Source: Candidatus Magasanikbacteria bacterium UBA922
GTDB lineage: Bacteria > Patescibacteriota > Patescibacteriia > Magasanikbacterales > UBA922
Direction: 5' to 3'
Length of the DNA stretch: 64,000 bases
NCBI GenBank assembly: GCA_002293825.1
Contig: DBDW01000001.1
Coordinates: 3,314-67,313 of the forward strand
Shown: piece after piece, positions 4,739 to 34,788 of the stretch
Numbering within the stretch: position 1 is the first letter of the stretch
How the letters are laid out: each line of letters starts with the position of its first letter
Translations under genes and position numbers: made by a program
Notes under the pieces: model-generated
Seen by the model: only the letters and a program-made list of their open reading frames with translations
What the model was told of the DNA's origin: nothing
Databases searched by the model: none

Positions 4739-5356
4739 TCAAAAACGCACAGCATTCCCTACCAATAACTGCACCACATACTGTACCGCCGGGCTGATTA
4801 CTCCAGGAAATAAGATAATAAAACCAAACAAAATAAACATTCCGTATCGCTCGAGTGTCTCTTTCACTTTCCACAATGAATCAGGTAATACTGCATACAG
4901 TACTTTTGACCCATCAAGCGGAGGAATTGGTAATAAATTAAAGATTGCTAGCCCGACATTGGCATAGACAATAATCAATAAGAACATGGTGATATCCCCA
5001 ATCGGCATGAGACGAATAAGTATTGCAAAGACCGCTGCCAACACCAAATTCGAAAGAGGGCCCGCAAGCGCTACCCACACCGGGCCCGTCCGTTGGTTTT
5101 TCAAATTATACGGATTATATGGTACTGGTTTTGCATACGCAAACAAAAATCGCCCACCCGTCGAAATATACAATAATACAGGCAACAGTATGGTACCCCA
5201 CAAGTCGACATGAGATTTCGGATTGAGGGTAAGCCTGCCTGCATAGCGGGCAGTAGGGTCACCCATACGGTCGGCAACCCATCCATGCATATATTCATGG
5301 ATAACGGCCGACGGAATAATCACAGCGAGATAAAACAATGAAATAATAGGATCCAT
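4739..5356 (-). CDS. Site-2 protease family (peptidase M50) integral membrane metalloprotease
   Basis: HEYMHG (HExxH) in a TM helix, NLLPIPPLDGSKV motif, multiple hydrophobic segments. Confidence 0.85.
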   Translation of the reverse strand: MDPIISLFYLAVIIPSAVIHEYMHGWVADRMGDPTARYAGRLTLNPKSHVDLWGTILLPVLLYISTGGRFLFAYAKPVPYNPYNLKNQRTGPVWVALAGPLSNLVLAAVFAILIRLMPIGDITMFLLIIVYANVGLAIFNLLPIPPLDGSKVLYAVLPDSLWKVKETLERYGMFILFGFIILFPGVISPAVQYVVQLLVGNAVRF

Positions 5357-5673: not shown

Positions 5674-6591
5674 TTACACACTCATCTGATGTGCAAACGG
5701 ACGCTTCATATCTGCATTACCAAGAACAATCGCCTCACACGCAGTAGAACATGCTCCGTGCAATCGTGTGTGACAAGTGTCACACCCAATAAACAATGCA
5801 TTACATTCTTTATACACACAATTGCGATAAGTGTCGCAGAGCGTGTCACACACCGCACACTTACCTACAACAACCGCACTATCTGTGGTGTTTATTGGCA
5901 ACACCATACGATCATCGAAGGTAAAACATTTACCTTCGAAAAATCCTTCGTTTCCATATTTTTCTGCGTATTTTACAATTCCACCTTCCAATTGATAGGT
6001 GCGTTTTGGATCAAACCCATGAGCAACAAACAGCGCACTCGCAGGCTCACAGCGAATCCCGCCCGTGCAATACATGACTACTTTTTTATCCTTAAACTGA
6101 TCATAAAAACCCATGTTGTCTTTCAAATCTCGAAAATAACTCACCGGAGGATTGATCGAGTTTTTGAACCTACCTACCGCCCATTCATAATCATTACGCA
6201 TGTCGATAAGTACCATATCTTCTCCTCGAAGGAGCCACTGATGAAATGTGTCTCTGTCTACATGTTTCCCACGCTTGGTCCAGTCAATATGATCTTTGAT
6301 TTCTGTCGTAATAATTTCATCGCGATATCGCACACGCAATTTTGGAAATGGAAGAAAATCAGCAATATGCTCTTTCCAATCAATATCTTTGTAAAGACGG
6401 TGCTGATCCATATACGCACGATACAACTCAATAGATTCTTTGGTACCACCAATATTTCCATTGATTCCATAATCACCAATCAAAATCCGACCCTTGATAC
6501 CCAAAGCCACACAAATCTCTTTGTGCATTTCTACCTCTTTTGCAGGATTTTTGATGTTGACGATTTTGTAATACAACAAGGTGTGATACAT
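5674..6591 (-). CDS. trhO: Rhodanese-domain tRNA uridine(34) hydroxylase TrhO (UPF0176/YceA)
   Basis: MYCTGGIRCE rhodanese active-site motif and C-terminal Cys-rich tail typical of the YceA/TrhO family. Confidence 0.8.
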   Translation of the reverse strand: MYHTLLYYKIVNIKNPAKEVEMHKEICVALGIKGRILIGDYGINGNIGGTKESIELYRAYMDQHRLYKDIDWKEHIADFLPFPKLRVRYRDEIITTEIKDHIDWTKRGKHVDRDTFHQWLLRGEDMVLIDMRNDYEWAVGRFKNSINPPVSYFRDLKDNMGFYDQFKDKKVVMYCTGGIRCEPASALFVAHGFDPKRTYQLEGGIVKYAEKYGNEGFFEGKCFTFDDRMVLPINTTDSAVVVGKCAVCDTLCDTYRNCVYKECNALFIGCDTCHTRLHGACSTACEAIVLGNADMKRPFAHQMSV

Positions 6592-6709
6592 ACTTCAAAT
6601 TCAAAACTGTAACTAAAATCTTAAAAATTTTAAAGAAATCAATATATCTAGTTTTATTTTTTAATTATCACATTACGTTTTGACAGACAAACGTTGGATT
6701 CATCGCTTG

Positions 6710-19646: not shown

Positions 19647-20024
19647 TCAAAACCTTGCAGACAATATTTCTACAGGCTGATCACTCGTGCGTTTGAATTT
19701 TATCGTATCTACCAATTTATACCGTAAAAAAGTTGGAATTTCCATATCTTCTTCACGATATCTCCCTACCCCAGAAAATACATACGCATACACTTCTCCA
19801 CCATGTGGACCAAGCACAATAGGCACACCTTTCTTTGTTTTTTTCACTGGTTTCTCCAATCTCGGTGGATATGCATACCCTTTGATCTCTGGAGATACGT
19901 CTTTTCCTTCATTCACATCTTTTCCATCAATCGCAAATATCACTTCGACAAAATCAGAACTCCGATTTGCAAAATTGATCACTTTTCGTCCTTCTATCTC
20001 TATAATTGAAAGTTGGTATTCCAT
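19647..20024 (-). CDS. Hypothetical 125 aa protein immediately downstream of, and probably co-transcribed with, the FtsZ-like gene
   Basis: 13 nt gap to the upstream gene; no recognisable domain. Confidence 0.5.
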   Translation of the reverse strand: MEYQLSIIEIEGRKVINFANRSSDFVEVIFAIDGKDVNEGKDVSPEIKGYAYPPRLEKPVKKTKKGVPIVLGPHGGEVYAYVFSGVGRYREEDMEIPTFLRYKLVDTIKFKRTSDQPVEILSARF

Positions 20025-20037
20025 AGAATATATATAA

Positions 20038-20952
20038 CTATGCTCCGATTAATACAATTTTCACTTTGTTTCCCAATTTCTGATCAGACACCACCCCAAA
20101 GAGTATTCGTGCATTCTGATCCACCTGACCTGCGATATAATTCCCTACTGCAGACACACTCTCCATGAGCACCTCACGACCCGCATAAATCACATACAGT
20201 ACGCGCTTCATCTGTGACACCTCGGGCGCTCTCAATGCAGGATGTACAAATAAGGTATCTGTAATCGATGCAATATTTGATTCATCACTCTCAACACTAT
20301 GAAAAAACAATGATCCTGCCGACTGAATCGTAGTTTTCAAATCCGCAAAATCAATATTGATAAGTCCATGCGTATCGACAATATCAAGAATCATGCTGAT
20401 GGCCTGCTCGATCACCCGATTCACTTGCATCAATCCTTCAGATGCGCTCGCCATACCAAGTACACGCGCACTATCGACCACGATCATCCCATCTACTGCG
20501 CCAGACACAATCGCACTCGCTCGATCTACCAAATCCTGTCGAGTAGCTCCTTCGAATGGAAATGCGGTCCTGCCCACAAAACACGTAAGTATTCCCTGTG
20601 CACGTGCCAAATTCGCCACCTCAGCCACCTGATACGCATTTGATTCGGTCGCCAGATTCCCCACGAGAAATACCATATCCGCCCCCGAGAGCACACCACG
20701 TACCTCACGCTCGACCGTAGCCATCACTTCTCGCGCTCCAGCTACGGGATCATTCGATACGAGGCTCATATACGGAACCTCGATTTTCGTAGTGATGTGT
20801 GGTGCATGTGCGAGTGCACTCGGTAGCCCGATTGACACGAGCTCGATCGTACGAGATGCCAGATGATACAGGCGATCGATAATCAGAGCTCCCTGCCCAC
20901 CGATAGAGATGATACGAATACGTGGATGTGATGAAGATTTTTTTGGAGGCAT
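20038..20952 (-). CDS. Divergent FtsZ/tubulin-family paralog with degenerate nucleotide-binding loops (pseudo-FtsZ)
   Basis: Aligns along its full length with FtsZ (IRIISIGGQGAL vs IKVIGVGGGGGN; GADMVFLVGNLATESNAYQVAEVA vs [27 protein letters not shown]; T7 loop NIDFADL conserved). The T1 and T4 glycine loops are lost. Start at the MPPKK Met. Confidence 0.75.
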   Translation of the reverse strand: MPPKKSSSHPRIRIISIGGQGALIIDRLYHLASRTIELVSIGLPSALAHAPHITTKIEVPYMSLVSNDPVAGAREVMATVEREVRGVLSGADMVFLVGNLATESNAYQVAEVANLARAQGILTCFVGRTAFPFEGATRQDLVDRASAIVSGAVDGMIVVDSARVLGMASASEGLMQVNRVIEQAISMILDIVDTHGLINIDFADLKTTIQSAGSLFFHSVESDESNIASITDTLFVHPALRAPEVSQMKRVLYVIYAGREVLMESVSAVGNYIAGQVDQNARILFGVVSDQKLGNKVKIVLIGA

Positions 20953-21009
20953 AGTAGGATGATTCAAGAATAGTGCGATACTGTGTACTATATCACAGCA
21001 CACACATGA

Positions 21010-21045
21010 GACAAAAAAATCGAACAGTTTTAGTGTTCGATGTGT
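21010..21045 (-). terminator. Rho-independent terminator after the NERD gene (ATCGAAC..GTTCGAT then T7 on minus strand)
   Basis: Hairpin plus a 7-nt homopolymer read from sequence. Confidence 0.55.
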
Positions 21046-21140
21046 AGACTCTACTGTCATTCTGAGCCGAATGCACCTGAGGCGAAGAATCCCTTCACGA
21101 ATGATATACACAACAATATTCAAGGGATCCTTCACTGCGT

Positions 21141-21878
21141 TCAGGATGACACACTTTCCTTTTGTTTTTTTCTCAACACTCCTTCTATCTTCTGCACCAC
21201 ATCTGATGAAAGCTTCTCTACCTCATTATCAAGTATTGTTTTTCTCAGCCATTTTTTTCCAACCACACGCACACCTTTCACATCATTATTTCCGAAACGT
21301 ATTCGCGCCGAGTGAGAACTGAACACAATAATCGGTTTTACAAAATACTCTTCCTTGAGCTCAGATAGTAAAAACGCATGCACATCCACAGCCTCACTCA
21401 TGACCTGAGATAAAATATTTTTCTCAAGCCTACTGCCATCTCTGGCAAGCTCATCACCATCATATCCAATACTTCCTTTATAACTCTTCGCATCAATCGC
21501 GAATACACCCGTCGGACCGACCACCACAAAATCAACATCACAATTCTCTCTAAATTTTAAACCATGAAACACAATATATTCATTTGGAAGTTGCGCAAGA
21601 ATTCTACGAACAACCATCTCACCATCTTGTCCATTCAGTGCACTAAAAAACCCAGTCCTACTTCTATCAATTAGAATAAATAATAATTTGAATAAGCCTA
21701 TCCACGCTAGTAATAAAATTAGAGAAACCCACCATAGCAACACAAAAAATAATCGAATATAGTAAAAATAAATAAGTAACAAAATTACCGTTGCCCCAAC
21801 AGCGCTTAAGAAGCGAAAACGATTTTTCTCTTTTTTATCTATTATATATTCACTCTCACCTCCGTATACTTTTGCCAT
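21141..21878 (-). CDS. NERD (nuclease-related domain) protein with N-terminal transmembrane helices
   Basis: 2-3 hydrophobic helices, then GEMVVRRILAQLPNEYIVFHGL...DVDFVVVGPTGVFAIDAKSYKG, typical of NERD. Confidence 0.7.
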   Translation of the reverse strand: MAKVYGGESEYIIDKKEKNRFRFLSAVGATVILLLIYFYYIRLFFVLLWWVSLILLLAWIGLFKLLFILIDRSRTGFFSALNGQDGEMVVRRILAQLPNEYIVFHGLKFRENCDVDFVVVGPTGVFAIDAKSYKGSIGYDGDELARDGSRLEKNILSQVMSEAVDVHAFLLSELKEEYFVKPIIVFSSHSARIRFGNNDVKGVRVVGKKWLRKTILDNEVEKLSSDVVQKIEGVLRKKQKESVSS

Positions 21879-21882
21879 AGTA

Positions 21883-22632
21883 CTATACTATAAGATTATT
21901 TCTAGCTTCGACATATCGACACCAATCGCAGCTCTTCCCTGTCTCTGGGATCGTGTCACTCTCGAGACATTTTTTTATTTTCAGCAGTGTCGGCTCGACC
22001 CATGAATCGTCGCCCGTATATGGAATAAGATTCACATCAAATTCTATGCGTTTATCAAATGCTTCTCGATCCATTTTTCCCGTACAGTACACAAAATATC
22101 CGGTATCAGAAACCAGCAAACCATTCTGTCGCAAGAGCCACTGATACACTTCCATCTGTCGCTTGTAGCCATCTTGCCATTCTTTGTCGAGTTCGGTCAC
22201 CGCTTCCTCTTTTGCAGTAGCCTTGTAATCGACGACAATATATTCATCTGCGCCGGTGATCCAGAGATCATCGATCGCACCCGAGACCAGAAGTCCAGTC
22301 GGCTCGTGCAGATATTTCATTCCGCCAAAATTATATCTCCACTCATCGAGCTCATCGTGTGCCACGGGTCGAGCATCAATCCCATACTCTTTCTGCAATG
22401 GATGCTGTTCACCTCGCACCCGATGTGCGTCGAATTCTTGTTTTAATAAATGATCGACTGCACTATTGATGGAAAACGGAAACCCGGGGACGCGCTTCAC
22501 ACCAAGCTTATTATCAATATAGAAACAACGCGGACACTCAAGAAACAGATCAATCTTTGATCTGCTCAGTTTCCAATTGTTTCCGCCGTAGTTCCAGGCG
22601 TCGCCTCGAGTAGGGTTGTAGAAGGTGGACAT
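21883..22632 (-). CDS. Cas4/RecB-like PD-(D/E)xK nuclease with predicted Fe-S cluster cysteines
   Basis: N-terminal CPRC, VVDYK (DxK), QMEVYQ (QxxxY), C-terminal CDWC. Confidence 0.65.
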   Translation of the reverse strand: MSTFYNPTRGDAWNYGGNNWKLSRSKIDLFLECPRCFYIDNKLGVKRVPGFPFSINSAVDHLLKQEFDAHRVRGEQHPLQKEYGIDARPVAHDELDEWRYNFGGMKYLHEPTGLLVSGAIDDLWITGADEYIVVDYKATAKEEAVTELDKEWQDGYKRQMEVYQWLLRQNGLLVSDTGYFVYCTGKMDREAFDKRIEFDVNLIPYTGDDSWVEPTLLKIKKCLESDTIPETGKSCDWCRYVEARNNLIV

Positions 22633-22636
22633 ACAA
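22590..22636. repeat. Copy 1 of a 46 bp direct repeat: encodes the real N-terminus (MSTFYNPTRGDAWNY) of the Cas4-like nuclease
   Basis: 41/46 identity with 23569-23615. Confidence 0.8.
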
Positions 22637-22643
22637 AATATTC

Positions 22644-23450
22644 TTACTTTTTTTCAATTTTTTTATTTTTACTGCGACGTATTCTAGTTTCGGCTTTCCC
22701 TACACCATCCACAGTTGGCAGTTCTTCAGGCATAGTACCGCCCAATTCTTCGATCGTTTTTCTCACTTTTTGTCCCACATGATAATGTGTCAAATTCGCA
22801 TTCATTTCTCCCTGCACACTTTCTCTCCTCAATTTTGCGTCTGCTTGAGTAGCACGAAATAAATTTGCAGCCAGCTCTTCACTGCCCATGTGATCGAGAA
22901 TCTTTTGAGATTTCTTCAATTGTTTTCTCTGATGAATATCTGAAGCATCCAATCCACCATACAAACCCTTATATCCATAATTCTGAAATCTCCCATAGTT
23001 TGTCACACCAGCTCCTTCTGCTGCTTCAAGTAACGAAGCATTGTGTTTCTTTACCTCATCTCGCAACCTCACACGTTTTTGATCTTCGAGAAGTGCATCA
23101 GAAACTTCTTGTTTTCGAGTTTGAATAGCAAAATATGTTTGACCCAATGCCACGATTTCCTTACTTGGATCAGAATTCTGAATAATCAGATAACAGCCAT
23201 AGCGTGATAGATGTATAGTATCAATACGTCTCTCGGCACCAGACCCGATCATGACCATTTCGTCCACATGGGAAAAATGGTTGTGGATATCTTGACCACT
23301 ATTCTTGCACGCTTCCTTTGCTTTCTCAATTACATTCAAAAATTTGCTATAGTTAGGATATTCTAAGACCTTTGCCAAATCACGGGAAGACCAATACTCA
23401 CCCCCGTATTCATTAACTTTTTTTAAGCGCTCGAATGCATTATGTACCAT
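22644..23450 (-). CDS. dinD: DNA damage-inducible protein D / RhuM-family protein
   Basis: EYWSSRDLAKVLEY...LSRYGCYLIIQNSDPSKEIVALGQTYFAIQTRKQE closely matches E. coli DinD. Confidence 0.85.
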   Translation of the reverse strand: MVHNAFERLKKVNEYGGEYWSSRDLAKVLEYPNYSKFLNVIEKAKEACKNSGQDIHNHFSHVDEMVMIGSGAERRIDTIHLSRYGCYLIIQNSDPSKEIVALGQTYFAIQTRKQEVSDALLEDQKRVRLRDEVKKHNASLLEAAEGAGVTNYGRFQNYGYKGLYGGLDASDIHQRKQLKKSQKILDHMGSEELAANLFRATQADAKLRRESVQGEMNANLTHYHVGQKVRKTIEELGGTMPEELPTVDGVGKAETRIRRSKNKKIEKK

Positions 23451-23568
23451 ATACCCCTCCTTAATTAGTGAATAAAATTATGTAATATTTTAGAATTCTC
23501 TATCTTTTATTTCCCTGACTTCGTTCAATTATATTGCTTATATATTATCTTACAATTTCCCCATCAAT

Positions 23569-23615
23569 AGTTCCAGTCTGCGCCTCGAGTAGGGTTGTAG
23601 AAGGCAGACATAGGA
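23569..23615. repeat. Copy 2 of the 46 bp direct repeat: relic gene start encoding MSAFYNPTRGADWNY followed by a stop
   Basis: Flanks the other side of dinD; 5 substitutions, all keeping the reading frame. Confidence 0.8.
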
Positions 23616-23616
23616 T

Positions 23617-24015
23617 TTACTTAAGTAGATTCCATGTATCTTTATATTTTAAAATAGCTCCTTTCATGATTCTTTTTTCTTTTTTAAAATGACTAATCAA
23701 TTTAGATAATTCGACACTCGGTACTATATATATTTCAGGCTCAACTGCCAAATCTTCAAATTTATTATTATAAATAACAAAAACTACAAAAAGATCTTTT
23801 TTTACTAAGACATTATTCACCACCAAAGATGAGTACCCTCTCACTGATTTCACATCAATTGATATCGATGTTCCATCCTTTTTTACAACCCTAATGTCAA
23901 TGCTCTTCTTGTTACCTTGACTAATATAGGCTTCCATTCCCAATCTATACAACTTTGATAACACTAAATACTCACTTGCAATACCGGTATCGAAGGTATT
24001 TCTTCTTGGTGGCAT
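23617..24015 (-). CDS. Putative Hjc/NucS-like PD-(D/E)xK nuclease (restriction-endonuclease fold), hypothetical
   Basis: E..(24 aa)..DIRVV..(10)..IDVKS pattern; 132 aa. Confidence 0.4.
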   Translation of the reverse strand: MPPRRNTFDTGIASEYLVLSKLYRLGMEAYISQGNKKSIDIRVVKKDGTSISIDVKSVRGYSSLVVNNVLVKKDLFVVFVIYNNKFEDLAVEPEIYIVPSVELSKLISHFKKEKRIMKGAILKYKDTWNLLK

Positions 24016-24019
24016 AGAT

Positions 24020-24451
24020 TTATTTTTTTAACAATACAAAATATGGTAATTTGTCTAACCCTATATAATTAAACATCCAGTAATTCGCACGTCTCGCTGT
24101 TTCTGATAATTTATGTTTTTTTAAATGGGTCTTTGGAACAAACGGGTAAAATCTAATTTCCTGGTGATTTCCCTCTTTATCTTTCCATTTAAAATTCGCG
24201 ATCAGTGCTGGTGTAATAAAACCAGATTTCAAGACTTTATCCATAATTTCCCATCCTGCACCAAAAATAATTGGTTTTGGTTTACTTTGGTTAGTCTTCA
24301 CTTGTGCACGAAAAGAACAGCCAGTGCATTGCACATCATATAAGGGATAGTTGGGTGGCAAGATCATGAGTTTTTTTGCGCAATTTGGACACGGTACATT
24401 TTCTACCACATCCAATTCACCTGCACGACCGTTTTCTTGATTTTTGGACAT
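24020..24451 (-). CDS. Hypothetical zinc-ribbon protein (CPNC-x17-CTGC) linked to the 3' end of hsdR
   Basis: ORF begins 17 nt after the hsdR stop; it would overlap hsdR by 20 nt if the upstream start at 24487 is used. Confidence 0.5.
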   Translation of the reverse strand: MSKNQENGRAGELDVVENVPCPNCAKKLMILPPNYPLYDVQCTGCSFRAQVKTNQSKPKPIIFGAGWEIMDKVLKSGFITPALIANFKWKDKEGNHQEIRFYPFVPKTHLKKHKLSETARRANYWMFNYIGLDKLPYFVLLKK

Positions 24452-24467
24452 ATATATAAATAATCTT

Positions 24468-27400
24468 TTATACGCTCTCCCCCGCAAACAACTCAGCCTG
24501 TTTCAATACGGTATCAGTTGCAATTTCTTGCGCATCCGGTGGATAGCCATATTGATTGAGCAAACGCTTAACCATAATACGCATACGCGCACGGGCTGAT
24601 TCTCTTAGACTCCAATCAATTGATGCATTTTCTCGCACGCGTTGTACCAAAATTCGGGCCAGTTCTCTCAAGGTATCGTCACCAAGTACTTTTCCCGCAC
24701 TTTCATTCATTACCAAAGCATCATAGAATGCAATCTCATCTTCAGTCAATCCTAGATTTTCTCCACGCTTATCAGCTTCTTGTACTTCATGCGCGAGCTT
24801 GATCAACTCATCGATTACTTGCGCTGCAGTTAATAAATTATTTTGGTATTTCTTGATTGCCGCATGAAGTATTTCTGAAAACTTTTTGCTCTGTACCGCA
24901 TTCTTTTTTCCTCGTGTTCTGATTTCATCATTTAATATTTTCTTGAGTAATTCAAGCGCAATATTTTGTCGTTTCATGCCGCGAATTTCTTCCAAGAATT
25001 CTTCTGAAAGAATAGAAATATCTGGTTTTTTGATTCCGGCAGCATCAAAAATATCAATCACCCCTTCCGACACCACTGCTTTGTCTACGATTTGTCGGAT
25101 CGTAGTCTCAATATCCATATCTTTTCCTCCCCCATCGCTCGCCAGTTTGGTAAGTCGTGCTTTGACTGCTTGGAAAAAGGCTACTTCATCTCGAATTTCA
25201 ACTGCTCTCAAATTTGGCATCGCAAGCGCAAATAATTTTCCGAGCGCATTCACTTCTGTGACAAATCGTTCTTTGTGATCTAGATTCCCAAGCAAAAAAT
25301 CTTCTACTTCAAGAATCGCAACTAATTTTTGTTTTGCTGTGCCGGTAAAATATTTTGAATAGTCTACATCGTGTAAAATTCCCTGCACAATTTCATATTT
25401 AGCAAGCATGTGCGGCACGGTATCCACTGTCTGATCGGCAATCATACCACCCGTTCCACCACTCTCAGTATAAACAGCAAGCGCTTCCTTGAGATCACTT
25501 GCAATGCCGATATAGTCGACAATGAGACCACCTGGTTTATCCTTAAATACTCGATTCACACGAGCAATCGTCTGCATGAGATTGGCTCCCTGCATAGGCT
25601 TATCAATATACATGGTATGAAGGCAGGGCACATCAAATCCCGTAAGCCACATGTCGCGCACAATCACGAGTTTCAATGGATCTTTAGTATCCTTGAATCT
25701 GGTCGCCAGATCTTTTCGATCTTCTTTGGTGGTATGATGCGGTTGCCAATCGGTCGGATCGGATGAAGATGTAGTCATGACGACTTTAAGTGCCCCCTGT
25801 TTCTTGTCATCACTATGCCATTCTGGTTTTAGTTTTATAATCTCTCGGTAGAGCTCGACTGCAATACGACGACTCATGGCCACAATCATTGCTTTTCCTT
25901 CGAATACTTCTTGTCGTGCTTCAAAATGCGCGACCAGATCACGCGCAATGTCTTGCAATCGTGCATGGTGTCCCACAATTGCCTCAAGCTGTGCCCATTT
26001 TGCTTTCGCTTTTTCGCTCACGGTTGATTCTTCACTTTCGAGTACGGCATCGACTGCACGATCAAGTTCTGCTTTTTTGTTTTCATCAAATCCAATTTTT
26101 ACCAATCGTGATTCGTAACTGATAGGAACCGTCGCCCCATCCACGACTGCTGCCTGGATATCGTAGACATCAACATAATTACCAAAGACTGCGCGAGTAT
26201 TGGCATCATTTTTTTCAATCGGAGTGCCAGTGAACCCGATAAACGACGCATGAGGTAGTGCATCTCGCAGATATTTTGCAAATCCATACGTAGTCTCTGC
26301 ACCCGTTTCAGTTGTTTTCACTTTTGCCCGTAATCCATATTGACTTCGGTGTGCTTCATCGGCCATGACAATAATATTTTCTCGATCCGAGAGTTTGCCA
26401 TACTCAGTCTCCCCTTCAGCCAGTGAAAATTTCTGAATGGTGGTAAATATAATGCCTCCACCTGATGTTGCTAATAGTTTTTTCAAATGTTCACGATTTT
26501 CTGCCTGGACCGGCTCCTGACGCAAGAGTTCGGTCGCTCCGGCGAAGGTATCAAATAATTGTTGATCAAGGTCGTTTCGATCCGTAATCACCACAATTGT
26601 CGGATTATTGAGTCTCTGCACAATCTTTCCTGCATAGAAAACCATGGATAATGATTTTCCTGATCCTTGCGTATGCCATACCACTCCAGCCTTCCGATCA
26701 CCTCGCGTTGCACTCAGTGTAGAATCGAGTGCTTTTTCTACCGCAAAATATTGATGATAGGCTGCAACTTTCTTGATCGTGCGAGTATAGGGCAACCCTG
26801 CATCATCAAATTTTCGTTCTTGTTCGTAGACCGTAAAATTTCGAACGAGATCAAGCAATCGCTCAGGCGTAAGCATTCCCAGTACTAATGTTTCAATCTC
26901 TGGCACCGTACGTTTCTCATCACGTGCTCCATCAATCGATTTCCACGCGAGGAATCGATCAAATCCGCTTGTGATCGTACCCATACGGGCGTCGAGACCG
27001 TCTGAGATGACGAGGATTCCATTGTACGCAAATAAATCAGGAATTGCTGATTGGTAATTGGTAAGCTGAGTAAATGCTTTGTGCACCGTCGCCTCTTCAT
27101 TCTTCGCATCTTTGAGTTCAATCACGACGAGTGGTAATCCGTTTACAAAGAGTACTACATCAGGAATTTTGTCTCGTTCCAGTCCCTTGATATAGAATTG
27201 ATTAGTTGCAAGCACATCATTATGTGACACCTGCTCCCAATCAATCACCCGCACTTCCCGTCCGCGCATATGTCCCTCTTCAAGAATTTCTACGGTTACT
27301 CCTTCTACGAGCAGGCGATGTACCGCACGATTATTTTCTACGATATTGTCGGTCTGGGTAGCAGTATGAATAATCTGATTCACTGCAAAGTTTCTCGCTT

Positions 27401-27575
27401 CTTCGGGGATATCAGGATTGAGCCGAGCGATTGCAGTGACCAGTCGATCACGAAGTATTACCTGCGAGAGATCCGGTCGCTCGGGTTCGAGTGCCTCGGG
27501 ACTGAGGTATGAAAAACCTGCTTCGCGGAGAAGGTCGAGGGTGAGTTGTTCGATTGAGGATTCGTTGAGGGTCAT
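24468..27575 (-). CDS. hsdR: Type I restriction enzyme R subunit
   Basis: 1035 aa with SF2 helicase motifs (TGSGKS, DEAHRSQ) and N-terminal nuclease region. Confidence 0.95.
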
Positions 27576-27576
27576 A

Positions 27577-28884
27577 TTATTTCATTTTAACAATCAAATC
27601 TAATACCTTCTTAAAGGTTTCACTATCAGGCAACAGATCTTGCAACGTTTTAACCTCTTCCAAAAAATCAGTGCCATCTTTTTTATTTCTTGACTTGTCC
27701 AACTTCTCTTTTGCATTAGCAACCTCTTCATAAGGTGATTGATAAAGCAAACACAAATTATCTGAAATAAATTTAACTATATCAACTTTAGTCTCAGGTA
27801 ATTTACTCTTAACACTAACGTTTACAACATCTTCTAACAAAAACTTCGTGTGATTTCTTATTACAGCCGCGATTACAGCCTTAGAGGCATATTTTTCATT
27901 AAGTTTTCTCTCGTGACTATACTGTTTTGCAGCCAAACCAACTAAAAACAATAGTGGTGATGTTAGTGTTAATCTATATAATGTCGTTTCTATTCCAGGA
28001 TGACTATCCCTATGAAATAAAATAAACAACATAATGGAGAGTAAAATTATACCTAGAACAAAAACACCCAACCAAATCAAAGAACTTATACGTAATAATT
28101 TTTCTCTCTTTTGAAAAGAATTTGCAAAACCTGTATCTGTGATCAAAGCTGTGATTTTTTCAACTTCTGACTTATTAGTATTTATCTCTTTAAGCCCTTG
28201 CTCAGACTCGTCTTTCATTTTTAAAACAGTATCCTTTACTTGTTTTATATCTTCAACTAGTTTAGCTGATTGATCACGAAAAGATTTTATTTCAACCAAC
28301 AAAGCATTCGATTGTTTCTGCAAGTCGACTGACTGATTAAGGATTGCTTGAAGCCCGTTATTAGTATCATTTATTTTAGCATTAACAGCAACAAAATCTT
28401 CATAAGCTTTTTGAATTTGGGAAATCTTATTTTGTATCTCAACAAATTGTTTTTCAATCTCAGCTAAACTTTGCTGAGATTTAGTCTTTATATTTTCGAC
28501 ATCTCCCTTAAAACTTGCCGCGGTGGAAACCAAAGCTTCGACCTCACTATTACGTCCTTCAATTTTTCCTTTAATATTCTCTATCTTTTGTAAAAATTCA
28601 TCAATTTTCTCTACATTTGGACGAGCTTGCTCAACATTATTTTTTATTTCTGATAAATATGTGTTGACTTTTTCTTTAATATTTTCAATTACTACCAATC
28701 TCTCACGAGAATCATTTGATATTTTTTCAATATCAATATTTCTAGTCTCGACTGCTTTAAATGCAGCATCATATCGAACACTAAGTGTATTAATTTCATC
28801 AAGTAAATTTTTTGCTTTCTTATATTGATTTCTTAACTCTTGTAATTCTTGTTGAGTAATGTTTTGACTATTTGTATCATCCAT
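27577..28884 (-). CDS. Hypothetical 435 aa protein: about 255 aa N-terminal coiled coil, two adjacent TM helices, and a 140 aa C-terminal domain, embedded between hsdS and hsdR
   Basis: Heptad-rich K/E/Q/N/I N-terminus; [28 protein letters not shown]; 5 nt gap to the hsdS stop, 1 nt gap to the hsdR start. Confidence 0.7.
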
Positions 28885-28889
28885 ACTTT

Positions 28890-30125
28890 TTACTTAAAAA
28901 TTTTGTTTAATATTTTATCTCTTAATTTTGACAAAGTTTGAATTTCAAAAAAATTTAGTTTTATCTTTCCAAATTGAGAAGAGACAGTATTACTAAATAA
29001 ATTAAGAATATCACTGTTTGGTATATTGATTTCAATATTTGAAAAAACGCCTGTATTTACATTTAGAGTTGCAGAACCTCCACCGCCGATCATTTGCAAA
29101 TCACTACTCATTGATTTCAATACAAAATACAAATATTGTAAAATATGTTCATCTTTAGGAATAATTGAATTTATTTGCTGATTTGTTTGAGAAGCTTCTG
29201 TGGTTATGGAAACTAAACCAACGGTTGCAATACAACTTACACAAATCGAATTTTCTGGCACATATTTATTTCTTTGTGTATCTGCACCAGATAGAGTCAA
29301 TGAATCTTCTGTTTTAACTATAAACATTTGACCATGCATGTCTGGAATTTTAATAAATGGAACTTGTCCTCCAAAAAATTCTTGATTTGATTTTGACGGA
29401 GTTTTGCCGCAGACAATATCTCCGATATCCCCCAACTTCCCAACCCTCCATCCCTCCGGAATCATCCCAAGCTCAGAATCAACCATCTTCCCTGTCGCAC
29501 CTGGAAATCTGAAATCCACAAACCATTCTTTGAAGAGTGTCTGTGCGATACTTTCGAGTGTATTATTTTCTTTTCGCAGCAGCTCGATCTTGTCGTCGAG
29601 ACTTCCGAGGATTGCGGCGATTTCGCGTTGTTCGGAGAGAGGTGGAAGTAAAAATTCATAGTCTCCAATTTTTGTAGGTGACGTATGCTTAACAGTACTG
29701 CCCGTTGCAGAATTCACAATAGACTTCTGATAATCTCTTGTTCTCATCAGATAGTAAATGAAATCTTTAGATACTTCATCTTCATTAACTTCTACAAGAC
29801 CAACTCGTTGATTATGCAAAAATATTTTATCACTTTTATCTGGTATTAATGCGGGGAAACCTAAGGTATCACCCTCCTTACTCAAATCTGTCATTGTTAC
29901 CACCAAATCCCCCGCCTTTAAGACGTATTCATCAGGAATTGGCCCATCATAGTACTTTTTGCCATCCTTCCAGCCTCCCCCAATCAAAAAATTACCTGGT
30001 GTAAGTAGAATATTTTTTGTCTCCTTAGTTGAAAAATATTCACCTTTAAAAGCAAAACCATGTTTTATACTGACTATGTCACCAAGCTTTATTGTTTTCC
30101 AATTTTTTGATGAGGTGAGGGGCAT
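28890..30125 (-). CDS. hsdS: Type I restriction-modification specificity subunit (two target-recognition domains)
   Basis: 411 aa with duplicated TRD architecture and conserved central and C-terminal spacer helices. Confidence 0.9.
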   Translation of the reverse strand: MPLTSSKNWKTIKLGDIVSIKHGFAFKGEYFSTKETKNILLTPGNFLIGGGWKDGKKYYDGPIPDEYVLKAGDLVVTMTDLSKEGDTLGFPALIPDKSDKIFLHNQRVGLVEVNEDEVSKDFIYYLMRTRDYQKSIVNSATGSTVKHTSPTKIGDYEFLLPPLSEQREIAAILGSLDDKIELLRKENNTLESIAQTLFKEWFVDFRFPGATGKMVDSELGMIPEGWRVGKLGDIGDIVCGKTPSKSNQEFFGGQVPFIKIPDMHGQMFIVKTEDSLTLSGADTQRNKYVPENSICVSCIATVGLVSITTEASQTNQQINSIIPKDEHILQYLYFVLKSMSSDLQMIGGGGSATLNVNTGVFSNIEINIPNSDILNLFSNTVSSQFGKIKLNFFEIQTLSKLRDKILNKIFK

Positions 30126-30127
30126 AT

Positions 30128-30634
30128 TTATTTAACACCAATCATTTTTCTAAATTCATCTGCAATTTTTTCTTCTTGCAACACCAAATCTGTTCTCATC
30201 TTTTCAGCAAGTTCATCCCATAATCTCGCATTTGGAATTTCACCTATTGGATGCGCCTCATACACAAAGTCAACAAAAAGCTTTCTATAATCATCTCGCA
30301 ATATGTCCATATTTTTACACAGATTCTTTGGTAAATAATGCTTCTTGGCATGATAGTATCTTATAAAATCATTAAATAGATTACTTGCTTTTGTTCGACG
30401 TTCAAATTCTGCATCCTGAGAACCATCATCTTGTTGAAAGATTGACACAAGCTCAGACATGGATTGCTTTAAAGATTCCATTTTTTCCATCAGACTATCA
30501 AAAACCTCTCCACGCTTTGTATACAGTCCGGATTCTTTGATAGCACGAATTTGTGTTCGATGATTCATCCATCCAGTAACTACAGCTGCCACCAAACCAG
30601 AACTAAACACTGATAATACAATAGTTTGCAAGTC
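30128..30634 (-). CDS. Hypothetical protein with N-terminal TM helix (169 aa), embedded in the R-M locus
   Basis: Start at MDLQTIVLSVFSSGLVAAVVTGW; the ORF-track start at 30700 is probably too early. Confidence 0.5.
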   Translation of the reverse strand, partial: DLQTIVLSVFSSGLVAAVVTGWMNHRTQIRAIKESGLYTKRGEVFDSLMEKMESLKQSMSELVSIFQQDDGSQDAEFERRTKASNLFNDFIRYYHAKKHYLPKNLCKNMDILRDDYRKLFVDFVYEAHPIGEIPNARLWDELAEKMRTDLVLQEEKIADEFRKMIGVK

Positions 30635-30641
30635 CATATAA

Positions 30642-30890
30642 TTAATTCCAACCCATTTTATACAACATAAAACCTCCAACAAGGAGAACAAAAAGTCCAA
30701 TTAAAACTTGCCCCCACCATATTTGATACCATTTTTCTGTACGCCCCGCACCATCATCAAAACTATTTCCTCGTGCAAAAGTATTTTCCCCTTCATCTTG
30801 AATTCCAACATCAAATCCTGAAAAAGAGTTGTTAATAAATTTATTATTTTTTCCCCTATTGAGGACGCCCACACTCTTTTTTTGTGTCAT
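30642..30890 (-). CDS. Hypothetical tail-anchored small membrane protein (82 aa, C-terminal TM)
   Basis: WYQIWWGQVLIGLFVLLVGGFMLY hydrophobic C-terminus; 7 nt upstream of the next gene. Confidence 0.4.
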   Translation of the reverse strand: MTQKKSVGVLNRGKNNKFINNSFSGFDVGIQDEGENTFARGNSFDDGAGRTEKWYQIWWGQVLIGLFVLLVGGFMLYKMGWN

Positions 30891-30977
30891 AAAATTTATT
30901 TTAAGATTCTGTTCTCACTATATACGTCTTAAAAAACTTCTTAATCGTCTCAACTGTTACACCCCTTATCTCGCTCA

Positions 30978-32168
30978 CTAATTATTTTTATTAAGCGATT
31001 GTGGAATAAACCCATTTTTCTCAAGTGATGTAATCACACTTCGTAATAGATAATTATTATTGAATCCAATCGTATAAATACGACCATTCTCATTGATTGA
31101 TTGAAGCATTTTTTTATCCAACAATTTTCTAATAATGCGCGATCGTTGCACTGAAGATTCCTGACCAATCACCTTCTCAAGATCTGCAGATTTAATCGTC
31201 ATTTTCTTGGAACGAATGACTGCTTTCAGAATTTCATACTCTCGGTCCGTGATCATCTTCTTTTCTAGTGCGTCAGTAATAGATGGGAGGAGGATTTTCT
31301 CGACCACATAGTGTATATTCAATAATCGATCAATTTTTTCTATTTCATCTTTTAATCCTCCAAGCACATACTCACACCACGCAAGCACATGCTCTGTTTT
31401 TCCTGTATCAGCGAGTGCCAGCATGTCATAATATTTTTGGCGATCCATACAGAATATAGCGGTCGGATTGAGAATCCGCCCCGCCTTTACTTGAAAATTT
31501 TGTTTGATAAGCATTGCATAGGTAAACATGCGTACCATACGACCGTTTCCATTATCAAATGGATGTACCCAGGTCATGCGATGATGAGCAAGTGCGGTGA
31601 CCAATAAATCATTCTGCAAATCTACCGGAGTATTCACAAATCCTAGTAATTCTTCGAGATATGTCGGTACTTGTATAGGATCAGGAAGTACTACAGTAGC
31701 ACCCTTAATTGAAACAGGTGTCTTTCGCAATTGACCTGGATATTTTGAACCCTCACCATCTGGGGGAGGTGTAAGCCCATCCACAATAATTTTATGAATT
31801 TCTGAAAGATGTGCTCGGGTAATTTTTGTACCATTTTTTATTTGTGCGTCAATAAATTCGATCGCGCGATCAATATTAAAAATTTCCCGTAGTTTTTCTT
31901 CGGTAGTATCTTTAGGCACTTGATCAATAATTTTTTCTACAAATTCAGCAAGCGTAGTTCGATTTCCCTCAATACGCACTGAACCCAAACTTTCCATCCA
32001 CTGAAAAATTTCTTTGAGTTGAAAAAAGATATATGGAGGTACCGCACCACCTAATCTCTTAACCCGTAACTTTTCTAGCTCAACAATAATGCGCGCTAAA
32101 TTCGACCCCCAACTAGGTTCAGGAAGTATCAAAGGGATATCTATAAATGTAACATTTTCATTTGACAT
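30978..32168 (-). CDS. Fic/DOC family protein (AMPylase-type), embedded in the type I R-M locus
   Basis: HPFDNGNGRMVR Fic motif; 396 aa. Confidence 0.9.
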   Translation of the reverse strand: MSNENVTFIDIPLILPEPSWGSNLARIIVELEKLRVKRLGGAVPPYIFFQLKEIFQWMESLGSVRIEGNRTTLAEFVEKIIDQVPKDTTEEKLREIFNIDRAIEFIDAQIKNGTKITRAHLSEIHKIIVDGLTPPPDGEGSKYPGQLRKTPVSIKGATVVLPDPIQVPTYLEELLGFVNTPVDLQNDLLVTALAHHRMTWVHPFDNGNGRMVRMFTYAMLIKQNFQVKAGRILNPTAIFCMDRQKYYDMLALADTGKTEHVLAWCEYVLGGLKDEIEKIDRLLNIHYVVEKILLPSITDALEKKMITDREYEILKAVIRSKKMTIKSADLEKVIGQESSVQRSRIIRKLLDKKMLQSINENGRIYTIGFNNNYLLRSVITSLEKNGFIPQSLNKNN

Positions 32169-32291
32169 AATTTAACACCAATACTTGATAAAATAGCTCT
32201 ATGTAGCTATTTTTTAGCTGAATTTACTATAGCATTATTTATCAAATTATGCAAGAGGTTATTTAACATCAATACATCATTACTACTATCT

Positions 32292-32509
32292 AATGGCAAC
32301 ATTTTTCTTTAATTTGTTGCCATTTAACCAGAGAAGTCAACAAAATTTTACCTTATTTTAGCCAAAATTTTGCATCTTAGTTAAGTATTGATGTGACACT
32401 TAACCAAAAGTAATTTTTATTGCTTAATCTAGCTAAATTTAATCTTCAATGGCAACAATATCGCCTATTTTGTTGACCTTACTCACCTCAGTGGCAACAA
32501 AACTATAAA
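32292..32509. repeat. Cluster of (A/T)ATGGCAACA motifs: three direct copies (about 32292, 32448, 32491) plus one inverted copy (32316-32325) forming a palindrome, inside a 550 bp AT-rich noncoding region
   Basis: Motifs read from sequence; additional hairpins at 32193-32215 and 32380-32404. Confidence 0.5.
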
Positions 32510-32686
32510 ATATCTCATTGTAGCCACATTTTTTGCCTGATAGTTAAAGTCTTTACCTATTGATCAGCAGAGGAGAAAAACTATCCTTTTTTACAAAATG
32601 TGGATAACATCAGTAATTATTGACTTTTTAAGATTTTTTATGTATAGTGTATATACATTTGGCGTCCCACATACGTGGGAAGCTCC

Positions 32687-32718
32687 GCTCCTCGCTCCGG
32701 CGAGGAGCTGTTTTTTTA
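32687..32718 (+). terminator. Strong + strand rho-independent terminator (GCTCCTCGC-TCCG-GCGAGGAGC then T7) with no + strand ORF upstream
   Basis: Perfect 9 bp GC-rich stem and T7; overlaps the stop codon of the convergent mazF-like gene. Confidence 0.65.
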
Positions 32719-33130
32719 TTCAAACTGTTTCCGAAATTCAGTTCGCACACTCATGAATTGTTCACTATCGAGCTTTGATTTTTTGCGCAATAACCGTTTC
32801 GCGCTAATTACCCTTCCTTGAGAAATATTGACACTTCTCACCTCTTCATCAATCACCACATGCATCTGATACCACGGTTTTTCTTCTTTTATCTTCGTAC
32901 TTGTCGGCAAAACAAAGCACATATCTCTCGAATATTTTTTGAGAATCAGCACTGGTCGTTCAAACAAATCATTTTTACCATCCACCTCATATCCAATATT
33001 TTTTTCCCAATGCCGCCCACCATATCTCACGCTCTTCAAAATATACTTCTCTTTTCTCTTGATTCAGATGATGACGAATCTTCTTTTTTGTCCATGCGAC
33101 AAATTTTTCACCCACCTCATACGGAGTCAT
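32716..33130 (-). pseudogene. MazF/PemK-family endoribonuclease toxin gene interrupted by a +1 frameshift in an A7 homopolymer (plus-strand T7 at 32999-33005)
   Basis: The upstream frame encodes ...REVYFEEREIWWAALGK, then a stop. The downstream frame continues NIGYEVDGKNDLFERPVLIL...MCFVLPTSTK.... Removing one A gives a continuous 137 aa MazF-like protein. Confidence 0.6.
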
Positions 33131-33152
33131 ACCTGTAGTAAATAGTAAAAAA

Positions 33153-34697
33153 CTATATCTCAATACCCACTTTTTTCAACTGTTTTTTGATCTCCTCATT
33201 AAGCCTTCCCTCTTCCTCGATCTGCCCTTTGAGCTCTACCGCAAGCTTCCCCATTTTTTCCTCAAACGGAATTCCATCATCAATCGCATCAGTAATCCCA
33301 ACATAGCGACCCGGAGTGAGTACATAATTGTGCTTTTGTACGTCTGCAAGTGTTGCAGATTTAGTGAATCCTTTTTTGTCTTCATACTTCCCATCCTTCG
33401 TTCTCCATTCGTGATAGACACCTGCCACCATTTCTATATCCTCATCACTAAATTCTCGATGCGTACGATCTGCCATGAATCCTACATCTGATGCATCGAT
33501 AAATAATATCTCACCCGTACGTTTCCGATCACCATTTCCGACACGTTTTCGCGAAATAAACCAAATACATGCAGGAATACCAGTGTTGTAGAATAATTGT
33601 TTTGGAAGCATGACAATACAATCGACCAGATCCGCATCTACGAGCGCTTTTCGTATCTCACCCTCACCACTTGATTGTGACGAGAGCGATCCATTTGCAA
33701 GCACACACGCCATTACTCCATGTGGCGAGAGATGGTAAATCATATGCTGAAGCCACGCAAAATTTGCATTGCCTGCCGGAGGCTTGCCATATTGCCAGCG
33801 CGGATCATTCTGTAATAATTCCGCACTCCAGTCTGAAACGTTGAATGGCGGATTTGCCAAGATATAGTCTGCTTTGAGATCCTTGTGTGCATCATTGAGA
33901 AATGATCCTTCAGTATTCCATTTGATTCCACTTCCATCAATGCCACGGATTGCCAAATTCATGCGCGCGAGGCGATACGTGGTCTGATTACTTTCCTGTC
34001 CATAGACTGCCAGATCATCAATTCTCCCCGCATGAGATTTCACAAATTTTTCTGACATGATAAACATTCCCCCACTTCCACAGCATGGATCATAGATGCG
34101 TCCTTTGTAGGGCTCAATCATTTGTACCATCAACTTTACAATTGATTTTGGTGTATAGAATTGACCACCTTTTTTTCCTTCAGCATTAGCAAATTCTCCG
34201 AGGAAATATTCATAGACGCGACCCAATAAATCTTTTGATTTTGCTTCTTCATCTCCGAGTGCAATATTGCCAATAAGATCAATCAATCCTCCGAGTGAGC
34301 CTTTATCAAGATTTGGCCGAGCAAATACTTTGGGCAAAATTCCTTTGAGTTCTGGATTGAGTTTTTCTATTGCTTCCATGGCGCGATCGAGATCTTCTCC
34401 AATCGTCGGCAATTTTGACCGACTATGCAGAAATGACCAGCGTGCTTCTGCTGGCACATAAAACACATGTTCTGCTCGGTATTCATCTATGTCTTCTGGA
34501 TTTGCACCTGTTCCTTTTTCTTTTTCTAGTGTCAGTTTAGCATGAAGTTCTTCAAATGAATCAGAAATATACTTGAGAAATACCAATCCAAGCGCGACAT
34601 TTTTGTATTCTGCTGCATCAATGTTTTTGCGGAGTTTATCCGCTGCTTTAAACAACGTTTTTTCGAAATTTTCTACTGGTTTTTTTTGTTGAGCCAT
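33153..34697 (-). CDS. hsdM: Type I restriction-modification methyltransferase subunit
   Basis: N6-adenine MTase motifs: LANPPFN (NPPF), DPCCGSGGM (motif I). Start at MAQQKK. Confidence 0.95.
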
Positions 34698-34788
34698 AAT
34701 AAAAAATAGTACTCTCATAGTAGCACCCTGCAGTATATGCGTCAATTTATTCTACTTACCTAAAATCCGCATATTTCAGCTGATTTTC

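Follow-up and report, generated by a model that had tools for sequence, protein, structure and literature searches.

A relic nuclease gene start beside dinD in a Patescibacteria defence island: a recombination scar at a reused insertion point

Defence islands turn over at hot spots beside core genes, and, to our knowledge, the entry of single genes without an integrase or a transposase is rarely visible. Here, we describe a locus in a 64,000-nucleotide stretch of the genome of Candidatus Magasanikbacteria bacterium UBA922 (contig DBDW01000001.1, positions 3,314 to 67,313; referred to below as the window), in which the gene dinD with its AT-rich leader lies between the functional start of a gene encoding a PD-(D/E)XK nuclease and a second, truncated copy of the same gene start. 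Such an architecture resembles that of e14 and phage 21 in icd of Escherichia coli, where the element brings a near-copy of the target gene end, the gene stays intact, and the displaced end persists as a relic with mostly synonymous differences. However, e14 and phage 21 depend on a tyrosine integrase, a fixed attachment (att) core and the 3′ end of their target, whereas at the window locus no integrase is present, the joints are variable, and it is the 5′ end that is duplicated. Integron cassettes are similar to the window locus in that single promoter-proximal genes are added at a recurrent site and older cargo is pushed away, but in the latter there is no IntI, no attI, no attC hairpin and no inverted repeat at the insert ends, and the repeats consist of target-gene sequence.

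Homology-facilitated illegitimate recombination (HFIR) is known in naturally transformable Acinetobacter, Streptococcus pneumoniae and Pseudomonas stutzeri (PMC5361080, PMC3240628). As these sources summarise it, it requires homology on one side only, joins the other end illegitimately near the homologous anchor and involves no dedicated recombinase. At the window locus, likewise, nothing but the conserved nuclease gene is shared, and the joint is a sharp one. The difference is that the classical products lose recipient DNA, whereas the window joint falls within the first codons of the anchor and the gene start is duplicated. The integration of a circle by a single crossover at lacZ of E. coli duplicates 109–950 bp of the target end (PMC3240628), and the topology of such a Campbell-type product, an insert between direct duplications of a target gene end, is the same as at the window locus, although in the latter the homology is 45 nt with a 23-nt exact core, and no circle or plasmid origin is evident. 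HFIR has been proposed also for relic-bearing arrays of C-terminal displacement in Rhs, contact-dependent inhibition (CDI) and type VI secretion system (T6SS) effector-immunity loci (PMC5361080). Successive insertions at the border of a conserved segment leave there truncated relics beside older cargo, and the three copies of the nuclease gene start in the related locus L008, described below, are similar. These arrays grow at the 3′ end of a toxin gene and keep the immunity genes; unlike them, the window locus involves the 5′ start of a non-toxin, housekeeping-like nuclease gene and unrelated, defence-type cargo.

The duplicated start of the nuclease gene

All genes of the locus are on the minus strand. 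A repeat search revealed a direct repeat of 45 nt (22589–22633 and 23568–23612) with 40 of 45 positions identical (89%), no indels and a spacing of 979 nt, which is the only long direct repeat in the 20–30 kb section of the window. An earlier note on this DNA, prepared from the sequence alone, placed the two copies at 22590–22636 and 23569–23615; the repeat is real, but these intervals are off by 1–4 nt and include three non-matching bases. The 23-nt exact core of the repeat, GCCTCGAGTAGGGTTGTAGAAGG, occurs twice in the window with up to three mismatches allowed and not once in 100 shuffled sequences.

The first copy (box copy 1, 22589–22633) is the functional start of the intact nuclease gene (21883–22632; 249 aa; Pfam family PF12705, PDDEXK_1, at 1e-11), the anchor and target of the insertion. 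In codon alignment it comprises codons 1–15 (22632–22588) and 1 nt upstream of them, and it translates as MSTFYNPTRGDAWNY... The second copy (box copy 2, 23567–23611), which we refer to as the relic, is contiguous with the open reading frame (ORF) orf132, as the functional start is in the related loci L006 and L011. It begins 5 nt past the orf132 stop with an ATG at 23611–23609 and not at 23615, continues for 15 codons (23611–23567), which translate as MSAFYNPTRGADWNY, and ends in a TGA (23566–23564) whose bases are the first three of the dinD leader. Both translations, as well as the run of the relic into a stop, agree with the earlier description. The homology starts at position -1 of the ATG, and the upstream contexts of the two boxes differ, which is where a match between two different upstream contexts of one gene would be expected to start. 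On the other side, 45 nt into the nuclease gene, there is a sharp joint between 23567 and 23566 (TGGAACTAT/TGATGG, with the slash at the joint; 21-mer spanning it, TGGAACTATTGATGGGGAAAT). Nothing aligns past it, and a continuation of the relic concealed within the AT-rich leader was rejected, as the local alignment was no better than that of shuffled sequences (p = 0.66).

Between the boxes lie, as had been described, dinD and its AT-rich upstream region: the 116-nt leader (23451–23566), which is 99.1% identical in two contigs of a sister strain (L086 and L087), the dinD gene itself (22644–23450; 268 aa) as the cargo, and an 11-nt spacer from the dinD stop to the nuclease ATG (22633–22643), which is the right edge of the insert and is unlike the spacers at empty sites. 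The arrangement of orf132, relic, joint and dinD is present in four independent assemblies (JGI 3300005689, JGI 3300014773, ENA ERZ761600 and Logan SRR2119805), and a base-by-base comparison of contigs L171 and L172 with L170 revealed no mismatches. Together with the results for shuffled sequences, these four assemblies rule out chance or an assembly artefact as the origin of the repeat. All five assembled contigs that encode exactly the window proteins show the occupied site, and neither an empty-site variant nor a circle was found among the assemblies of the same population.

Recurrent insertion at the nuclease gene start

The comparison of the window with 80 orthologous nuclease loci from species-representative genomes allowed us to identify sites without the 979-nt segment, whose presence or absence among relatives had been proposed as a check. 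In L006 (orf132 90% and nuclease 89% identical at the amino acid level) and in L011, orf132 leads directly into the nuclease gene. In blastn comparisons, the window orf132 and relic form a single block on L006 (4517–4977, 88%), and likewise on L011; both blocks stop exactly at the last base of the relic, and the functional start of the window aligns to the same bases of L006 as the relic does. In L089 and L036, which are also empty, as well as in L008, the DpnI-like gene is directly upstream of the nuclease start. The upstream neighbour is orf132 in L208 and L209, a reverse transcriptase gene in L207 and another gene in L206. Since the empty sites lack the segment and the upstream genes vary, the 979 nt represent an insertion at a hypervariable junction, and the relatives do not all share one arrangement, which would have pointed to a simple local duplication. 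In L006, orf132 and the nuclease gene both open with ATGCCCAC (4529–4536 and 4934–4941), and the N-terminus of the L006 nuclease, MPT, is atypical for the clade; the shared start may be a tiny relic of the insertion of orf132.

The locus L008 encodes a nuclease of 88% amino acid identity and the same hsdR and DpnI-like genes, and contains three nuclease-start boxes. Box 1 (4468–4493) directly follows the stop of the DpnI-like gene and precedes an FtsZ-like gene that has kept its native upstream region. Box 2 (5752–5782) is 31 nt long, has one extra base and is accompanied by about 11 nt similar to the end of the DpnI-like gene; ORF281 comes after it, and the functional nuclease start is at 6664 (box region 6662–6700). 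The order of these boxes holds because an identical 45-nt sequence borders the run of N of this contig at either end. As the joints of the two L008 relics (26 nt and 31 nt) differ from each other and from that of the window (45 nt), at least three independent events took place at this gene start in one small clade. Thus, the start of the nuclease gene is shown to be a reused landing site, an insertion hot spot, and the comparison with other cargo, proposed in the earlier note, revealed two independent relics, beside the FtsZ-like gene and beside ORF281. The earlier proposal of a landing pad at which the gene start is regenerated holds for the site, but is unproven for dinD as a repeatedly moving cassette. 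Further nuclease-start relics were found neither in about 80 other nuclease loci nor in L206–L209. ORF281 (5811–6656 of L008) had no match in Pfam, PADLOC, PHROG or PDB; its C-terminal part is GIY-YIG-like by eye only.

The two Logan contigs of the sister strain share the joint of the window. L087 contains orf132, the relic, the leader, dinD and the nuclease gene with an identical joint sequence, and L086 begins at the joint and contains the leader, dinD and the nuclease gene. In an ungapped alignment of 1931 nt, the segment from the joint to the dinD stop is 98.9% identical between the window and the sister strain (10 differences in 939 nt; dinD alone, 98.9%), and the backbone from the FtsZ-like gene onward is 97.8% identical (38 differences in 1812 nt). 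The divergence of the insert (1.1%) is thus near that of the backbone (2.1%; p = 0.06), which, together with the identical joint, fits vertical descent of one insertion. Comparison of these sequences indicates that this insertion took place in an ancestor shared by the window organism and the sister strain. The flanks are less similar: orf132 is 91.6% identical, the relic 80% and the nuclease gene 89.5%. Within the nuclease gene, nt 136–330 (window 22303–22497) form a patch with about 77% identity and the remainder is 93–97% identical, which makes the gene a recombination mosaic; in place of the NERD-domain gene, the sister strain has a DUF3800 gene. The simplest reading is that the insertion was inherited vertically and that recombination with more distant alleles replaced its flanks. 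Like the nuclease gene, the slots on either side of it are recombination mosaics.

The boxes, too, bear traces of recombination. The relic of the sister strain encodes MSTYYNPTRGADWNY, a clade-typical N-terminus identical to that of L007, and differs from the functional start of the same strain at 8 of 45 sites, 7 of them at third-codon positions. The relic-specific changes (3–4) are all synonymous, although a single-base change in these codons is synonymous in only 21% of cases; the probability of such an outcome under neutral decay is about 0.002–0.01. This bias argues that the differences of the sister relic are those between two functional alleles and not those of a decaying duplicate. Between the relics of the window and the sister strain, 9 sites differ within 27 nt, compared with 1% in the adjoining segment, and at 7 of these 9 sites the window relic is identical to the window functional copy. 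The data fit either a partial conversion of the window relic by the functional start 979 nt away or a replacement of the sister orf132 and relic by foreign DNA of the empty-site type, with the exchange ending inside the relic. Under either option, the sequences show that homologous exchange has involved the boxes since the two strains split, in agreement with the homologous recombination that had been postulated at this site. The later replacement of the sister orf132 and relic would weaken the inference of two alleles at the origin; hence, we favour the proposal that the copies come from different alleles over that of a fresh target-site duplication, but it is unproven. At 22598–22603, the functional start of the window reads GAC GCC (D-A), that of the sister strain (L087 1230–1235) GCC GAC (A-D) and that of L206 GAA GCC (E-A); in view of the last, the difference between the first two is possibly an allelic patch and not a codon swap.

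Alternative origins of the scar and other dinD loci

The reading that we favour, with a probability of roughly 0.55, is that the relic, in itself a real recombination scar, was produced at the conserved nuclease gene by one homologous exchange and one illegitimate joint. The nuclease gene would have been the only homology shared by two DNA molecules with different upstream contexts. A homologous exchange inside or at its 5′ region, and a second exchange at the illegitimate joint described above, would have attached a minimal expression unit at codon 15/16, leaving behind a dead relic of the resident nuclease start. This unit consists of the AT-rich leader with a promoter-like site and of dinD, and the distance between the joint and the nuclease ATG is 934 nt. 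As one exchange would be homologous and the other illegitimate, one partner would supply a complete second gene start and the conserved nuclease would be kept intact. A repeat edge at a gene boundary on the cargo side and a sharp joint at a variable distance are the pattern expected from such a pair of events. As to the exact route, we infer either HFIR with linear DNA homologous on one side or the integration of a circle by a single crossover; both would give the same product, and the incoming side may have been dinD or the orf132-side island.

Several results are in accord with this reading and not with dedicated mobility functions. The parental contexts share homology on one side only, and the upstream genes also differ among relatives. 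Over about 10 kb to each side, none of the called genes was assigned to an integrase or transposase Pfam family, the gene tables contain no Pfam family of tyrosine or serine recombinases, and the three different joints do not provide a constant att core. The repeat search revealed no terminal inverted repeats or hairpins at the ends of the insert. Insertion sequences and other transposons are not indicated either, as the duplications are 26, 31 and 45 nt and neither a transposase within 10 kb nor inverted ends were found. In the region 20000–26000, no Rfam family reached the gathering score.

Other results weigh against this reading. Microhomology at the joint appears to be limited to 2 nt or less. 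The donor arrangement, with dinD directly upstream of the nuclease gene and no relic, occurs in none of the 80 nuclease loci and in none of the 81 metagenomic and 31 viral dinD loci covered by our further surveys, and no foreign donor was identified among them. The leader is unique: no homologue was found beyond the sister strain, where only about a dozen 14–15-mers matched, at E of 0.16 or worse. A match upstream of the L206 nuclease gene, considered as a clue to the origin of the leader, is one of these and was rejected. The boxes of the window differ at only 5–6 of 45 sites, and the sister relic, which suggests two alleles at the origin, could be a later foreign replacement; orf132 is also 8.4% diverged. 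Finally, the first relic of L008 precedes an FtsZ-like gene that is normally downstream of the nuclease gene, and it fits a tandem duplication and deletion equally well.

Of the alternatives, that of a portable cassette survives best, although we consider it rather unlikely. According to it, a 979-bp unit of box, leader and dinD spreads repeatedly, with the relic box serving as a homology arm or attachment site and the gene start regenerated each time, either by a single crossover of an excised circle or by a double crossover in the box on the left and the nuclease gene on the right. The unit is indeed 99% identical between the window and the sister strain with breakpoints at its edges, while its immediate flanks are 80–92% identical. 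The boxes do exchange sequence, the same gene start flanks other cargo in L008, and single crossovers of circles are able to duplicate a target end in E. coli over the lengths given above (PMC3240628). Moreover, the closest relatives of this dinD (L092, L094 and L098) are also surrounded by duplications of neighbour gene ends. However, dinD at this site is known from one joint and one lineage, its divergence is what vertical descent predicts, the box sequence of the circle inferred from the two strains conflicts at 3 of 45 sites, and no empty site or alternative arrangement was found in the assemblies of the same populations. The exact core, at only 23 nt, is another point against a cassette; a core of this length is marginal for RecA-type exchange. 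The claim of the earlier note that the dinD module moves repeatedly by way of the nuclease start is not supported: a single joint, identical in both strains, was found, with divergences of 1.1% for the insert and 2.1% for the backbone, and dinD adjoins the nuclease gene in none of the 80, 81 and 31 surveyed loci.

The duplications around other dinD genes are of several kinds. The neighbours of dinD in the 81 metagenomic loci are very diverse, and about one-fifth of these genes directly follow hsdM. In L094, the start of a gene encoding a DUF2779/Cas4-like nuclease is duplicated perfectly over 131 nt (4778–4908 and 5816–5946), with the same 11-nt spacing as in the window. The 3′ end of a convergent gene is duplicated over 66 nt in L092 (4829–4894 and 5817–5882) and over about 95 nt in L098 (~4255–4349 and ~5223–5317), and in L133 a repeated 77-nt terminator has its first base at the stop of the upstream gene (1116–1192 and 2332–2408). 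Repeats of at least 40 nt that hug the gene were found at 5 of 49 dinD genes and at 8 of 875 other genes of similar size, an excess of roughly 12-fold (p = 3e-4, post hoc). In the case of other genes of bacteria of the candidate phyla radiation (CPR), hugging repeats are a mixture of intergenic promoter, terminator or repetitive extragenic palindromic (REP)-like sequences, including those at RAYT-like genes, and are not relics of neighbour genes. The pattern was not reproduced in the 31 viral dinD loci, where only one weak, 17-nt terminator-like repeat was found. Conserved cassette termini were sought as well and rejected, since dinD units with different targets share a promoter/operator in some cases but no ends. 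In L088, L091, L092 and L107, about 25–70 nt upstream of dinD, lies a conserved promoter whose -10 is covered by a palindromic element (TTGCCAAAAATAT..AGTGGTATAATATCAyTATAA), which may be a repressor site; the window leader lacks this promoter.

A tandem duplication of a block from the nuclease start, followed by deletion of most of the first copy so that its first 15 codons were left, is improbable as the origin of the window locus. This common mechanism requires no foreign DNA and suits the first relic of L008, where two boxes enclose the FtsZ-like gene, which is normally a downstream gene, together with its native upstream region; the contig ends right after the NERD gene. It would, however, require that dinD once lay downstream of the nuclease gene and that a second copy was lost, and no relative has a detectable gene of the DinD family there: at E ≤ 1e-5, tblastn revealed no match between the window DinD and the downstream Bro-N gene in L006, L011 or L206. 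In addition, the sister relic resembles a different functional allele and not a decayed identical copy.

A target-site duplication made by a transposase or by a casposase-like or staggered-cut insertion, with DinD itself as a possible catalyst, is very improbable. The direct repeats around a compact unit and the excess of hugging repeats at dinD, which is post hoc, are what it would predict. Nevertheless, there is no transposase or integrase nearby, there are neither terminal inverted repeats nor conserved unit ends, the copies are not identical, the repeats range from 22 to 131 nt across dinD loci, and one of their edges coincides with a gene boundary in the window, L094, L092 and L133 and lies within a few nt of one in L098. 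The predicted structure of DinD, which comprises Bro-N and DdrC-like helical bundles without a nuclease or recombinase fold, gives no support to the idea that DinD is the enzyme of its own insertion. Least probable of all is a decayed integrative element, a larger integrase-bearing island that would have entered the nuclease 5′ end with a replacement gene start, in the manner of prophages in icd or tRNA genes, and of which only dinD and att-like repeats would be left, since a surrogate gene end between direct repeats matches the architecture of this class but no integrase remnant is present, the unit consists of a promoter and one gene only, and three relics with three joints (26, 31 and 45 nt) are unlike a fixed att core.

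The genes of the locus and the meaning of the relics

The identity and coordinates of dinD given earlier are well supported. DinD matches the NCBIfam model NF008573 at full length as an equivalog (residues 3–266; 366.5 bits with a cutoff of 242; E = 9e-110) and the PADLOC model of the candidate defence gene PDC-S13 at 6e-110, and has an N-terminal Bro-N domain (PF02498; 49 bits with a cutoff of 25.6). The label "RhuM-like" does not apply, as no match to PF13310 (Virulence_RhuM) was found at E ≤ 0.01. DinD also matches a PADLOC model of type I specificity subunits over the first 265 positions, and DinD-HsdS fusions are therefore implied. The AlphaFold model of DinD (pLDDT 88) has Bro-N and helical bundles, and a Foldseek search with it against solved structures revealed no nuclease or recombinase fold. 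Its sole matches there at E below 0.001 were to DdrC of Deinococcus (E = 2e-5, probability 1.0, TM 0.38–0.46). The similarity of the predicted structure to DdrC may suggest a remote relationship between the two proteins, both of which are DNA-damage-induced; DdrC is a DNA-binding damage-response protein without an enzyme fold. In the leader, a promoter-like site (-35 TTGTAA, 23555–23550; 16 nt; -10 TATAAT, 23533–23528) matches a sigma-70-like consensus and is suitably placed, although the number of such sites is not above that in shuffled sequences.

The designation of the nuclease as Cas4-like is loosely supported by the PF12705 match and not by the Cas4 model TIGR00372 (25.6 bits, below the cutoff of 65); PADLOC Cas4 models match weakly, at 1e-8 or worse, and the neighbourhood gene tables contain no cas genes. 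At least 8000 homologues of the nuclease exist, of which the best 120 are 77–90% identical, 248–278 aa long and encoded by many Patescibacteria lineages. The nuclease is about 80% identical across very different lineages of Patescibacteria and has no relative in PDB by sequence. Conservation of this degree points either to an essential core function or to frequent horizontal transfer.

The insertion locus is the right-hand edge of a type I restriction-modification (R-M) island (24468–34745, assigned by family matches). The gene order is hsdM (33153–34745), MazF-like (32716–33039), Fic (30978–32168), hsdS (28890–30125), a coiled-coil gene (27577–28884), hsdR (24468–27575), DpnI-like (24020–24487; PF06044 at 2e-11), orf132 (23617–24015; no Pfam family; the direct upstream neighbour of the nuclease gene at empty sites), relic, dinD, nuclease, NERD (21141–21878; PF08378) and FtsZ-like, all on the minus strand. 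The type I R-M, DpnI-like, Fic, MazF-like and NERD genes around the locus confirm the defence-island setting. The Fic and MazF-like genes and two small ORFs (30978–33039) are embedded in the type I R-M operon, with hsdM on one side and hsdS on the other. The slot downstream of the nuclease gene (window 21141–21878; L086 1645–2382) is variable: it is occupied by NERD in the window and L008, by DUF3800 in L086/L087 and L208 and by a Bro-N gene in L006, L011 and L206. One breakpoint falls within the final 18 nt of the nuclease gene, the other within the initial ~90 nt of the FtsZ-like ORF. In two other CPR genomes, Y1-transposase-like genes, whose N-terminal sequence is RAYT-like by eye, are flanked by 22–23-nt palindromic repeats (L057, 1781–2537; L068, 10712–11416); the one in L068 lies directly after the nuclease gene.

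The relic is a well-documented, real scar at a reused insertion point, and dinD as a repeatedly moving or self-moving cassette is unproven. The relics record the exact joints of three independent events in the first 8–15 codons of one highly conserved gene, which itself supplies the homology and is kept intact by its duplicated start. CPR bacteria have small genomes with few classical mobile elements and probably take up DNA. It is conceivable, although rather unlikely, that in Patescibacteria single promoter-plus-gene defence modules, dinD above all, are added without an integrase by copying the end of a neighbour gene, and that the relic then serves as a portable homology arm, by which the same or later modules would re-enter this gene end in other genomes; the start of the nuclease gene would be one shared "attachment site" in this route. 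The three independent relics, the duplications at L092, L094 and L098 and the roughly 12-fold excess of hugging repeats are consistent with such a route. If it is not general, the relic is an ordinary one-off recombination scar. If it is general in CPR bacteria, it would indicate a main route of gene gain in these organisms, and truncated copies of neighbour gene ends would be a simple marker of recent insertions.

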